Part shown: positions 2,212-10,649 of the stretch, piece after piece
How positions within the stretch are numbered: the first letter of the stretch is position 1
Layout of the letters: every line of letters starts with the position of its first letter
From: Myxococcales bacterium
GTDB lineage: Bacteria; Myxococcota_A; UBA9042
DNA length: 25,741 nucleotides
Reading direction: 5' to 3'
Assembly: GCA_037441385.1 (NCBI GenBank)
Contig: JBBISH010000093.1
Location: forward strand, 1 to 25,741
Made by a program: the position numbers and the translations under genes
Notes under the pieces: generated by a model
Database searches by the model: none
What the model was told of the DNA's origin: nothing
What the model saw: only the letters and a program-made list of their open reading frames with translations

Positions 2212-3554
2212 CGAGCAAGTACGGGCTGGGTTTGGGCTTGTTGGGCCTGATTCTTTGCAGCAGCGCCGCCGCGCAGGCCGACGACGACGTTTGGTCCCAC
2301 AGCAAGGCTTGGCAAGTCGTGCTGGCGCGCCACCCGGCTCTGCGCGGTGCTCAAGCCGATGTAGAAGCGGCGCGTGCGCGGGTCGACCAGGCCGAAGTGC
2401 CGCTGTTGCCCACCACGACCTTGGACGCCAGCCACGCGCAGATGACCGCGAACTTTACGCCCCGGCCGGGTGCAGTGCCGGCGTCGTTCAAAGCGACGAC
2501 CAGCCATTGGTCGGCCGAGCCGTATCCGTTTTGGACCACACAGCTCAATACGCGCTGGAATTTCACCGATTTTGGTCGAACGCGTCGCAACATGGACTCG
2601 GCCTACCTGCAAGTCGAGGCGCAGCGCAGCGACATCGGCGCCCTGCGCCGCCAGCTCTGGCTGCAGTTGACCCAGAGCTACCTGCAAGTCCTGGCCGCCG
2701 AGGCGAGCTTGGACGCGGCCCGCGAGCAGCGCGATCAGGCCGCGCAGCGCCGCGAGTTGGTCAAGAAGAAGGTCGAGGCGTCGGTGCGGCCCCCCCTGGA
2801 GCTGCTGCGGGCGGACTCGGACTTGGCTGCGGCCGAAGTAGGCGTCTTCAAAGCCGATGACCTGGTACGCGCCATGCGGCTGGCGCTTGGCACGGCCATG
2901 GGCACGGGCGGGCTGATCCAGGGCCCCTTGGCGCCTTTGGTGCCGCAGGAGCCGGACTTGGCTGCCGAGCGCCTGTCCGGCACGCCGCCGATGGACCAAT
3001 GGGTCGCCCAAGCCAGCGCGACGCGCGACGATTTCAAGGCCCTGGACCAACGGATGGCGGCACTGCGGGCGGCGGGCGATGCCCTGCACAAGGCGGCGAT
3101 GCCAAGCCTGTACGTGGCGGGACAGGTCGGCGCGGGCGGCATCGAAGTGAGCAACTTGGTGGTCAATGGTTCGATCACCGCCGGAATTTCGGTGCCCCTG
3201 TCGGGCGCTTGGGTGCAGCACGGCTATGTAGACGAACTGCAGGCGCAACTGCGGTCGCTGGCCGCAGCCCGCGACCTGGCGACGCTGGCGCTCAAGGCCG
3301 AGCTGTCGCAGGCGCTGACGGCAGTGCAGCAGGCCCGCAACCGGCGACCGGCGGCGCAGACCTACCGTCAGTTTGCCCAGAAGGCGCATGAACATGCGCT
3401 GGCTCGCTACGCGGCTGGCACGGCGACCCTGCTCGAAGTGGTCGATGCCGAGACCGCCGTGACGCTGGCTCGCTTGCAGGGCATCCAGGTCGAGTTTGAC
3501 GAGTCCCTGGCCGTGGCGCGCTGGCAGGCCGCGATGGGACGGACTGGGCCCTAG
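2202..3554 (+). CDS. TolC family outer membrane efflux protein
   Basis: GTG at 2202 overlaps the upstream stop. Signal peptide (GLGLGLLGLILCSSAAAQA), then HPALRGAQADVEAARA, LLPT, DFGR, YLQVLAAE and RYAAGTATLLEVVDAE, typical of OEP repeats. The 1770 start in the ORF track is a spurious extension. Confidence 0.9.
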   Translation: MSIASKYGLGLGLLGLILCSSAAAQADDDVWSHSKAWQVVLARHPALRGAQADVEAARARVDQAEVPLLPTTTLDASHAQMTANFTPRPGAVPASFKATTSHWSAEPYPFWTTQLNTRWNFTDFGRTRRNMDSAYLQVEAQRSDIGALRRQLWLQLTQSYLQVLAAEASLDAAREQRDQAAQRRELVKKKVEASVRPPLELLRADSDLAAAEVGVFKADDLVRAMRLALGTAMGTGGLIQGPLAPLVPQEPDLAAERLSGTPPMDQWVAQASATRDDFKALDQRMAALRAAGDALHKAAMPSLYVAGQVGAGGIEVSNLVVNGSITAGISVPLSGAWVQHGYVDELQAQLRSLAAARDLATLALKAELSQALTAVQQARNRRPAAQTYRQFAQKAHEHALARYAAGTATLLEVVDAETAVTLARLQGIQVEFDESLAVARWQAAMGRTGP

Positions 3555-3856
3555 AGTACCGATCAGAAACCCGAACCTGCGGGCAAACGTCGCGGCGGGT
3601 CGCCCTAGCGCCCGCTTGCGACCCACATGACATCAGCGAGTTTCCGTCGGCGAGTGGTTCCGTTGCCCTGAACCTTGGAGATTCGTGATTGGTGTTCTAG
3701 CCAGCGGATCAATCTAGACTTTCTCCGCGCTTCCGAACCTTCGAACTCGGCGCGGCGAGTCGCTGCACGCGCTCGCTTGCGCCGCACTTGGGGCTAGAGA
3801 CGCGACCGGCGGAGTAGATTACTGAACAACTGTCCAGTACTCTGTCACGTCTCTAG
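3551..3856. repeat. Array A of CTAG-delimited palindromic (MITE/REP-like) units
   Basis: CTAG at 3551, 3605, 3697, 3714, 3794, 3853. Terminal inverted repeats ctagagtaccgatca/tgattggtgttctag (3551-3700) and ctagagacgcgac/gtcacgtctctag (3794-3856). Confidence 0.7.
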
Positions 3857-3947: not shown

Positions 3948-4838
3948 GTGAAGAGTTCGACCATTCAACGTTGGTGGCGCCTGGGCAGGATGGCGGCGGT
4001 CGCAGCCCTATTGGCGGGCGCTGTCGCCTGCAAACCGAGCATCGAAGGCGAGACCCGCGCCTGGGACCAAAACAAGCTGACTCTGCAAGAATGGGTGGGC
4101 AAATTTCCCAACTTCCGCGCTGCCGTGGATGGGCGCGTGAGCGAAGCCCAGGCCGAATTCGATGCCGCGAAGGGCATTGGCGACGCCGATCAGCGGGCCG
4201 AAAAGATGCGCGAGGCGAACAACAAGCTGTCGGTCCTGACGTCGGCGTTCCAAGAGATCGATCGCAAGATCAAGGAATACGATACCCTCAAGCGCGATCC
4301 GACGCTGCTGCAACTGCAAGGCACGCAGCTGATGCCGGCCATGCAGATGTCCGAAGCCATCCTTCGCGAAGCCCGCGCCAAGATGGACGGGCCGGTCAGC
4401 AATGCCGGCGAGGCTCTGGGCCGCTTGAAAGACGCCAGCGCGATGATCGACCGCGCCATGCAGCCGCTGCGCCAGGCGCGATCGCAGGTTGCGGCCCGTC
4501 CGCAAGGCCAGCCGGGCCAGCCGGGCATGCCGCCGGCCCAACCGGGTGCGATGGGCCAGCCGGGCCAGCCTGGGATGCCTCCGCCGGCCATGGGACCGGC
4601 CCCGATGGGCGCACCGCCGCCAGCTGCCGGCGCGCCCGCCATGCGCCCGACCGGACCGGGCATGCCGCCGCAACCTGGCATGGCCCCGCAACCTGGGATG
4701 GCCCCGCAACCTGGGATGGCACCCGCGCCACCGCCCGCGATGGTCCCCGCCGGTGTGCGGCCGCCACCGGGACCCGGTGCTCCGCCGGTGGGTGCACCGC
4801 CCACGGGCGCTCCGGCCGCAGGACCCAAGCCGTTCTAG
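3948..4838 (+). CDS. Hypothetical lipoprotein, helical N-terminal domain plus Pro/Gly/Met/Gln-rich tail
   Basis: GTG at 3948 preceded by GGGGGAG; lipobox LAGAVAC; helical/coiled-coil-like core; low-complexity C-terminus. Confidence 0.8.
   Translation: MKSSTIQRWWRLGRMAAVAALLAGAVACKPSIEGETRAWDQNKLTLQEWVGKFPNFRAAVDGRVSEAQAEFDAAKGIGDADQRAEKMREANNKLSVLTSAFQEIDRKIKEYDTLKRDPTLLQLQGTQLMPAMQMSEAILREARAKMDGPVSNAGEALGRLKDASAMIDRAMQPLRQARSQVAARPQGQPGQPGMPPAQPGAMGQPGQPGMPPPAMGPAPMGAPPPAAGAPAMRPTGPGMPPQPGMAPQPGMAPQPGMAPAPPPAMVPAGVRPPPGPGAPPVGAPPTGAPAAGPKPF
4668..4721 (+). repeat. In-frame 18-bp tandem repeat x3 (PQPGMA)
   Basis: ccgcaacctggcatggcc / ccgcaacctgggatggcc / ccgcaacctgggatggca. Confidence 0.9.
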
Positions 4839-5364
4839 TACTACAAACCCGAAGTACGTTCAGGTTGGGCCTGTCGAATGGTTTGTAGTACTGGCCTTCT
4901 CATACGGTTTCCGTCCAAATCGACTCGAAAATTTCGGCAATTCTTCGGGCCCGAACCGGGGTCCCCGCCTGATTCTCGCCGGTTGCAGACCGTGTCAGAG
5001 AATCCGTACAGGCGTGAATCAGACGGGGTTCGTATCATGAGGCAAAGGGGGCGCGCCGCGCACTCTTGGACCCCCGCCCCGTGCGCCCCCCGCGTGCGGC
5101 TCACGCGGCCTAGTACGCCAATGACTCCAACCCCGAACGAACTTGAGATTCGGCGTACTAGGAGCCTGTCGGCAAAATGGGCGACACTACATGTCCAGTT
5201 GGTTATACATTATGATCTTATTGGGTGCCGCCAGTCTCCTAGCCTTTTTCGTTTGTCCAACTGGCCGAAAATCGCCCGAAGTGAATTCGTGCGATTTCAG
5301 CCAGTTGCCGCCGCGCAAGACGCGGCGCTAGGATTGTGCCGGGATTGTCCCAACACGCTCCTAG
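4835..5364. repeat. Array B of CTAG-delimited palindromic (MITE/REP-like) units
   Basis: CTAG at 4835, (CTGG 4891), 5110, 5158, 5239, 5328, 5361. Most intervals carry their own terminal or internal inverted repeat, e.g. agtactacaaacc/ggtttgtagtact, ctagtacgcc/ggcgtactag, ctaggagcctgtcggca/tgccgccagtctcctag. Confidence 0.75.
4902..4965 (-). repeat. REP-like dispersed hairpin repeat, copy 1
   Basis: Reverse complement of 4935-4962 is identical over 28 nt to 6006-6033, with similarity extending to ~65 bp. Confidence 0.85.
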
Positions 5365-5532
5365 TTCCACAGGAACGTCGCCGCCGAGCGGAGCAGCAAG
5401 GCTGCGCAGAGCGGCTGCCCTACCCAACCGCCAACCACCCCGAATCGCTTGCCGGCCCAGTGCGCGTCGCCCTGGCCGCCGGCCAAGCCCGTTGACCACG
5501 AGCGCCGCACACAGTGGGCGCTGGAGTACCCC

Positions 5533-6000
5533 ATGGCGAGCAATCTAGAGGCCCAACTGGGCGAAGAACTGAAGAACTGCATGCGCAGCGGCGACAAGGT
5601 GGGCACCATGGCCATTCGCATGGTCCGCACCGAAGTGATGAAGCGCCGCACCGCCAAGGCCGGCGTGGAAGTGACCGACGAGCTGGTCGTCGAGGTGATC
5701 CGCGCCTACGTCAAGCAGCTGCAAGGCTCGGTCGAAGAGTACGGGGCGCGCGGCGTGCAGCCCGCCGACGACGAAAACCTGGCGCAGATGGTCGCCGAGG
5801 CGCAGTTCCTGCAAAAGTTCCTGCCGCAGTTGATGGGCGAGGCGGAGACGGCGGCCGTCATCGACCAGATTCTGGCGACCCAGGGCGCGGTGGACGCCAA
5901 GATGGCGGGCAAGATCACCGGTCTGGTCATGAAGGACTACAAGGGCCGCGTCGACTCGGCCCTGGTCAACAAGCTGGTGCGGGCCAAGCTGGGGGCGTAG
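5533..6000 (+). CDS. yqeY: GatB/YqeY domain-containing protein
   Basis: ATG at 5533 with GGAG RBS; LKNCMRSGDK...IRM, E..FLQKFLPQLM, GKITGLVMKDYKGRVD match the YqeY pattern. Confidence 0.9.
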   Translation: MASNLEAQLGEELKNCMRSGDKVGTMAIRMVRTEVMKRRTAKAGVEVTDELVVEVIRAYVKQLQGSVEEYGARGVQPADDENLAQMVAEAQFLQKFLPQLMGEAETAAVIDQILATQGAVDAKMAGKITGLVMKDYKGRVDSALVNKLVRAKLGA

Positions 6001-6002
6001 AA

Positions 6003-6068
6003 CGAACCCCGGTTCGGGCCCGAAGAATTGCCGGTGTTTTCGATCTGACTCGGACGGGACAGGTACGA
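6003..6068 (+). repeat. REP-like dispersed hairpin repeat, copy 2 (between convergent genes, possible terminator role)
   Basis: cgaaccccggttcgggcccgaagaattgccg...ctcggacggga starts just after the yqeY stop and folds as an imperfect hairpin. Confidence 0.85.
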
Positions 6069-10568: not shown

Positions 10569-10583
10569 TACGTCGAAATAGGG

Positions 10584-10649
10584 CGAACCCCGGTTCTGGC
10601 CCTGCAGCTTTGCCGGAGTTTCTGAGGCGATTCAGCCGGGATCCGTTTG
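10584..10649 (+). repeat. REP-like dispersed hairpin repeat, diverged copy 3 (between convergent genes)
   Basis: cgaaccccggttctggccc...ttgccggagtttctga...gattcagccggga aligns colinearly with copy 2. Confidence 0.7.

Follow-up and report, generated by a model that had tools for sequence, protein, structure and literature searches.

MITEPsy1 of Pseudomonas syringae is, in the accessible part of its description, a two-ended element of 100 nt that is linked to ISPsy2, duplicates CTAG, and nests in other elements (PMC3189936). The available text of the same report uses the term composite MITE transposon for a pair of MITEs that mobilises the intervening DNA (PMC3189936). For the insertion sequences that matter here, the parts of the sources at hand give GGCC as the target of ISPsy36, an IS1182 element (PMC8027508), and describe the duplication of TA by IS630 elements (PMC2170065). 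Thus, MITE nesting and CTAG targeting are already known, and the new aspect of the elements presented below is their four-ended build. No report of IS1182 MITEs at CTAG was found in the literature searched, where few subscription journals were covered, and titles and the opening parts of abstracts yielded none on bacterial MITEs with doubled or internal inverted ends. The families themselves may already be included in ISfinder or in supplementary MITE catalogues.

The locus lies in a window of 25,741 bp (the whole stretch of DNA analysed), which is contig C93 of the genome G000 (6.63 Mb in 221 contigs, 66.9% G+C, 91% complete); the other G numbers denote relatives. An array of hairpins follows a gene whose product is predicted from its signal peptide to be lipoprotein-like and gave no Pfam or NCBIfam match (Table 1). 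Judged from the sequence, the array is very probably a stack of three multicopy, gene-less MITEs, named A, B, and C, at the CTAG of a stop codon, where DDE transposases acting in trans are likely to have inserted them successively. Like MITEPsy1, as far as its available description goes, A and B are short, non-coding, TIR-bounded, multicopy, and nested, they target CTAG, and their ends match those of autonomous insertion sequences. Unlike the two-ended MITEPsy1, each of them has four end copies and a structured core, and their mobility is read from the sequence. Composite MITE transposons are similar in that two end-pair modules flank a passenger moved by the outer ends; here, in contrast, a non-coding hairpin serves as the passenger, the entire composite measures ~200 bp, and it is this composite rather than the mini-element that has been amplified.

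Table 1. Features of the hairpin array and of its flanking genes in the window
Feature	Position (bp)	Strand	Remarks
Upstream lipoprotein-like gene (predicted), 295 aa, Pro/Gly-rich tail	3951..4838	+	ORF; TAG stop lies within the target CTAG
Element B, IS630-type MITE, 327 bp here	4835..5161	+	Coordinates include both CTAGs (element proper 4838–5158 under TA duplication)
B left end module	4835..4894	+	Outer end and inverted copy of its first 11–13 bp; inner CTAG decayed to CTGG here
B core	4895..5109	+	GC-rich hairpins, 4895–4899 and 5038–5109, split by C
Element C, 132 bp (4903–5034)	4900..5037	+	Between duplicated TCA (4900–4902, 5035–5037); nested in B
B right end module	5110..5161	+	CTAG-bounded hairpin; last CTAG common to A
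Element A, IS1182-type MITE, 207 bp including both CTAG duplications	5158..5364	+	Element proper 5162–5360; 23 loci; ends match the G000 IS1182
A left end module	5158..5242	+	Outer TIR, AT-rich spacer, inner inverted TIR plus CTAG
A core	5239..5331	+	Without TIR; a long hairpin that covaries and has a G(T/C)RAA loop, and a short one
A right end module	5328..5364	+	37-bp TIR pair
yqeY gene, downstream synteny anchor	5533..6000	+	Pfam PF09424, E=2e-26; orthologues in relatives

The hairpin array is a real, non-random feature. An earlier sequence-only reading of the window had divided it into five hairpin units, and inverted arms were found in all of them: 4837–4849/4880–4892 and 5109–5119/5152–5162 match at 100%, 5158–5174/5226–5242 at 88% (15/17), 5258–5270/5295–5307 at 92%, and 5328–5344/5348–5364 at 76%. 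The folding z-scores of the five units were −5.2, −4.2, −1.95, −6.1, and −2.8, in this order; thus, the folding of 5158–5242 alone is weak. The six CTAG sites reported between 4835 and 5364 are present (at 4835, 5110, 5158, 5239, 5328, and 5361), while 0.43 would be expected per 530 bp (P(≥6)=6e-6), and 0/2000 dinucleotide shuffles reached this number. Even one CTAG-anchored inverted pair at ≥8/12 was found in 0/2000 shuffles, the real region having two; in the proposed comparison, shuffled sequence thus equalled the array in neither respect. As also described earlier, the array begins at the TAG stop of the upstream ORF, which sits in the first CTAG, and from 5110 on one CTAG is common to each pair of neighbouring units. 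CTAG is the most under-represented 4-mer of G000 (observed/expected 0.65; 5353 occurrences in total). It was wrong to regard its other occurrences as scattered singles, because 3551–3856 also has six and G000 contains 123 clusters of at least three. This second stack, located upstream of the lipoprotein-like gene, consists of family D (3551–3700, two-ended) and family E (3697–3856, three ends with the right one doubled), which have one CTAG in common; ~64 D matches and 79–97 E module matches were counted in the whole of G000, and G007 is without the stack, judged from an alignment gap.

The five units do not correspond to five elements, nor are they mutually unrelated as had been assumed. The segments 4835–4869 and 5127–5161 form a 35-bp inverted pair and 5157–5178 and 5344–5365 a 22-bp one; each pair represents the outer ends of a single element, B and A, respectively. 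B has units 1 and 2 as its ends, with C between them, and units 3, 4, and 5 together make up A. The end of the first unit reads CTGG instead of CTAG. In unit 4 (5239–5331) the inner arms could be verified, whereas a terminal inverted repeat could not (3/12 matches, the background level), and the stretch 4895–5109, to which no unit had been assigned, contains the third element. The suggested search for further copies in the genome showed that every unit is multicopy. It is whole elements, not single units, that are present or absent. The piling up of five independent CTAG-bounded mobile units at this locus is accordingly highly improbable, being largely refuted by module co-occurrence: the module order is fixed across G000, the left and right modules of A are almost always paired, unit 4 has no TIR, and the mini was part of the composite in 7/7 G003 loci read and in all G010 loci with enough flank. 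What speaks for independent units is that solo end-pair minis occur in other taxa and that two clean ones exist in G000; considering the former, the idea of separate units may still apply to how A and B arose in the distant past.

Both end modules of A are present at 23 loci in G000, and modules lacking their partner are few (left 2/27 matches, right 1/26). The sequence flanking the copies diverges directly outside the outer CTAGs, and the terminal inverted repeats cover 22 bp at 82%. The element was detected in 7/40 relatives and its length is identical in G007 and G010. In G010, where the family is far more amplified, ~190 exact matches to the right module and head-to-tail tandems with one common CTAG (L011, L099) were seen. 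The end motif of A led to an IS1182 element at G000:C209:2898–4569, which is 1672 bp long, CTAG-bounded, and carries an intact ORF of 466 aa scoring 354.6 bits with NF033551 (cut-off 270). The outer ends of A match 10/11 of the first bases at each end of this element. Transposases above the same cut-off were found in G024 (374.4 bits) and G052 (315.6 bits), the full IS1182-like elements of G024, G052, and G018 have CTAG-bounded ends like those of A on both sides, and for the homologues in G001 and G003 one or more such end was seen. A is IS1182-derived in the sense that its ends match an element, in the same genome, whose transposase passes NF033551; unlike the autonomous IS1182 elements, which have single ends, it is without a transposase. 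Given the GGCC target of ISPsy36 in the available part of its description, CTAG is to be regarded as the target of this subgroup and not of the whole IS1182 family. A plain two-ended MITE of 120 bp with the IS1182-type ends of A was observed at G000:C18:50785–50904 and C68:16060–16179.

The sequence-only reading had named IS5 and IS701 as leads, but the partner of A belongs to the IS1182 family and no IS5 or IS701 partner was found. An IS5/IS701 origin was rejected since PF13546 gave no match and the PF13586-like element, seen where four contigs end, differs in its ends and is flanked by TNA. The latter is the right end of an unassembled IS5-like element (G000:C156, C174, C28, and C158; L021–L024), whose PF13586 score is below the cut-off; its target type is as for C and its ends are different. 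Another contig end, G000:C4:1–700 (L067), encodes the C-terminal part of a further DDE transposase (PF01609). When G000 was scanned de novo for TIR pairs bounded by CTAG and 0.5–3.5 kb apart, 17 candidates emerged from 538,431 pairs, with the C209 element as the sole transposase-bearing one and none with B ends. The statement that no transposase is nearby was correct for the contig with respect to the four Pfam families searched, though the intact cognate transposase is encoded elsewhere in G000.

For B, the IS630 lead turned out to be right. Both end modules of B were detected at 28 loci in G000, where the usual size is 175–195 bp, and the copy in the window is longer because C is nested in its core. 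Modules without a partner made up 3/41 and 8/42 matches, several of them nested, cut, or diverged. The terminal inverted repeats are 35 bp at 71%. A complete IS630 in G047 (NF033545 211 bits, cut-off 100) has B-like ends on both sides, and B is IS630-derived by this match to an element whose transposase passes NF033545. The IS630 transposase of G052 scored 215.3 bits against the same cut-off of 100, the left end in G003 equals that of B for the first 16 bases and is followed by a truncated IS630-like N-terminus, and the left end of the G018 IS630 shares the B motif and begins like the right end of B. No IS630 transposase was found in the 91% complete G000, where neither PF13358 nor the G003 N-terminus gave a match; consequently, we infer the mobiliser of B from the relatives. 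A metagenome scan for the B left end gave 2 loci and no further full IS630. Like IS630/Tc1/mariner elements, B has ends matching the complete IS630 of relatives, and a TA target within CTAG would be compatible with this; unlike those, it has doubled ends and no transposase. The work of Tenzen and Ohtsubo from 1991 is said to have described a preference of IS630 for TA within CTAG. The flanks of B are mostly CTAG, with which duplications of 2 bp and of 4 bp look alike, and in two copies they are ATAG or CTAA, compatible with TA. B-like cores with other ends also occur in G000: at C130:2108, C12:28384, C5:36067, and C11:73187 the core is followed by a different hairpin end module, and these four are likely to represent a further family.

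C gave 430 non-overlapping matches in G000. Its 3-bp flanks are identical in 52/83 copies scorable at both ends (of 238 near-full copies), nearly all being TNA, and its termini are imperfect inverted repeats which both begin with TAC. It resides in the same TCA of the B core twice at G000:C44. Partial copies were also noticed in the window at 6004–6063, right after the yqeY stop codon, and at 10577–10646. The elements of the array are short, non-coding, dispersed, and multicopy, and they have TIRs; a cognate autonomous element with the same ends was found for A in G000 and for B in relatives, while no cognate transposase or autonomous element was found for C.

The nested copies bear directly on the proposal that distinct non-autonomous miniature elements stack at a self-regenerating CTAG. 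A occupies the inner CTAG of B at C202 and that of E at C45, and at C44 both A and family D lie in the inner CTAG of B. These insertions inside other elements support stacking at regenerated CTAG sites, as had been proposed, and are internal empty-site controls for CTAG duplication; target duplication and empty sites were also found in the flanks of C and at the orthologous loci, respectively. The suggested check of the latter showed that G007, G005, and G001 have orthologues of the lipoprotein-like gene, which are joined to yqeY without the whole stack. In G005, a single CTAG is kept at the stop codon, and the spacer of G007 is ~174 bp as against 168 bp in the window once the stack is subtracted. 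As the species concerned are different ones and their spacers have diverged, these empty sites demonstrate the absence of the stack, not a base-exact junction. A strain-level empty allele or a joint across the whole array was not encountered among the joints listed for the DNA contig sets of three runs from a single study, one of which is likely the source; this speaks neither for nor against movement. Ten of the 23 copies of A have a CTAG in common with B, D, or E, compared with 358/5353 CTAGs lying in such families (p=9e-7, a value inflated because many CTAGs cannot tolerate insertions). Many copies lie at stop codons: by a crude test applied throughout G000, a long GC3-rich frame closes in 8 terminal CTAGs belonging to the 23 A copies and in 16 belonging to the 28 B copies, versus 1171/5353 CTAGs genome-wide. 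The B-then-A junction recurs at C93, C155, C77, and C182, and the B variants differ between C93 and C155; thus, B and A together are not one co-moving unit.

The dispersal of the elements also bears on a second idea of the sequence-only reading, a host array cut into structured RNAs at CTAG, and on its variant, an attC/REP-like array recombined as single-stranded hairpins. Strong folding and covariation and the GNRA-like loops in the cores would suit both. Nevertheless, the array is absent from the orthologous loci, its copies are dispersed, nested, and found in both orientations, their ends match DDE elements, and target duplication accounts for the boundaries. Rfam gave no match at gathering score for the array, the single one (E=0.33) being far below it. 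The attC consensus boxes are RYYYAAC and GTTRRRY. The AAC/GTT foot of the stem varies, and an integron attC was rejected because the AAC/GTT boxes were not invariant across 15 core sequences. Taken together, we give a host RNA or attC/REP-like array next to no chance. The view that the array is neither CRISPR nor REP/BIME was borne out, both having been rejected as there is no direct repeat family of near-identical units in register.

According to the MITE-stack explanation, an IS630 transposase would have put B in the stop-codon CTAG, duplicating the TA inside it, an IS1182 transposase would have put A in the regenerated CTAG at the right end of B, duplicating CTAG, and another enzyme would have put C in the B core, duplicating TCA. 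The assignment of enzymes follows the end matches and may be regarded as probable; as for the order, the arrival of A next to B seems a little more likely than the reverse. Each CTAG-targeted insertion would leave CTAG on both flanks and preserve the stop codon of the host, so new harmless targets would be created for later elements where CTAG is rare.

A and B are each built as hairpin–core–hairpin; every one of the four end copies has CTAG at its foot. Provided that the MITE-stack explanation is right, chances are slightly in favour of the doubled ends having arisen by the same stacking earlier in time, followed by template switching. Two tiny end-pair minis would have come to lie around a hairpin passenger and would have been co-mobilised through the outer ends; afterwards, one arm of each short hairpin would be copied onto the other repeatedly by template switching, and the inner ends would become vestigial. 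Template switching is supported for proteobacterial inverted repeats in the accessible parts of two reports (PMC5941160; PMC8604942). In a scan of a genome collection for end pairs, at least 124 rows were obtained, of which 78 of two abundant types and 7 variants were set aside as non-independent and 3 with N runs were left out; at least 25 were taken as solo and at least 11 as multi-ended or cut off. The solo pairs, at least 25 of 33–63 bp, came from Burkholderiales, Gammaproteobacteria, Lentisphaerales, Desulfarculales, and others. Among the matches listed, four-ended elements with an unrelated core (L154, L236) were found in Victivallales and three-ended ones in Deltaproteobacteria and Thermodesulfobacteriota. 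The solo IS1182-type minis of this size (L141, L147, L158, L194, L226, L257, and others) are spread over several phyla, and some of them continue as near-perfect palindromes far past the TIR. In G000, clean solo minis are few (C187:5297 and C19:39849) and each abuts another element, which counts against this explanation. The solo pairs and the three- and four-ended elements support a captured stack, together with the B-like cores with other ends and the drifted inner arms: the latter are near perfect in A of G010 and G006, drift has altered 2 and 3 of their 11 bases in G000, and one inner CTAG of A is lost in G003. In 20 copies of B, the mean number of matches over 8 bases was 7.25 and 6.75 within the modules and 5.6 between the outer ends, and private changes on both arms of one hairpin were noticed in two A copies (L003, L018). 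As the arms match within a module rather than as left/right pairs, origin by mini capture needs later homogenisation, and we hold this combined origin of A and B with less confidence than the stack itself; the pattern would be no different if each end had been duplicated by folding back.

The doubled ends and the core hairpin of such stacked MITEs could also be functional, with fold-back ends and an enhancer-like core selected for mobilisation or survival, and the benefit might lie in additional sites for the transposase, in the handling of single-stranded hairpins, or in RNA structure at the 3′-ends of genes. We consider this unlikely. The build occurs in two unrelated families, A and B, and partly in E, and it is retained in several relatives while the spacers vary in length and sequence. 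At the fifth base of A, C is the usual letter in both arms of the left module and G in both arms of the right one, and one base of the B right module is identical on both arms in 19/20 copies. In 15 sequences of the A core hairpin, which are related to each other, 95.1% of cells are paired and 13/19 pairs have changed on both sides (0/500 shuffles). The loop is almost invariant across genomes, elements of other phyla have a similar one, and the divergence among 19 G000 copies of A is 1.1% in the core compared with 4.3% in the left spacer. These findings would favour selection, but template switching gives the same covariation without it, as stated in the available text of PMC5941160. Decay of inner arms and of inner CTAGs is seen in G000, G007, G003, and G023, while the families remained multicopy, at least in the first three of these genomes. 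There are also plain two-ended MITEs whose ends are the same (the 120-bp family at C18 and C68), and the autonomous elements have neither doubled ends nor the core loop. The hairpin plus T-run end shows no bias toward the stop codon (A 2 left versus 6 right; B 8 versus 8), and for this lack of orientation bias a terminator role of the left hairpin and T-run was rejected. The doubled-end build of A and B is unusual and likely neutral, though neutrality does not fully explain the lower divergence of the A core and its near-invariant loop. It also remains doubtful that four-ended MITEs form a distinct convergent class, comprising at least two unrelated families (IS1182, IS630) in several phyla, whose hairpin ends including the target tetranucleotide and selected core are needed for efficient mobilisation or tolerance, and whose solo 33–63 bp pairs would be among the smallest bacterial transposable units.

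The array is mostly ordinary selfish DNA, and it calls for caution as such elements mimic structured RNAs by their strong covariation and GNRA-like loops. The intact cognate IS1182 transposase in the same genome makes the pair of A and its transposase directly testable. If movement depended on the inner ends or the core, a requirement new to DDE miniature elements would be established. The hairpin–core–hairpin build is found with two transposase families and, together with the solo minis, also in other phyla, which points to stacking at regenerated target sites as a general way in which new composite MITEs arise.
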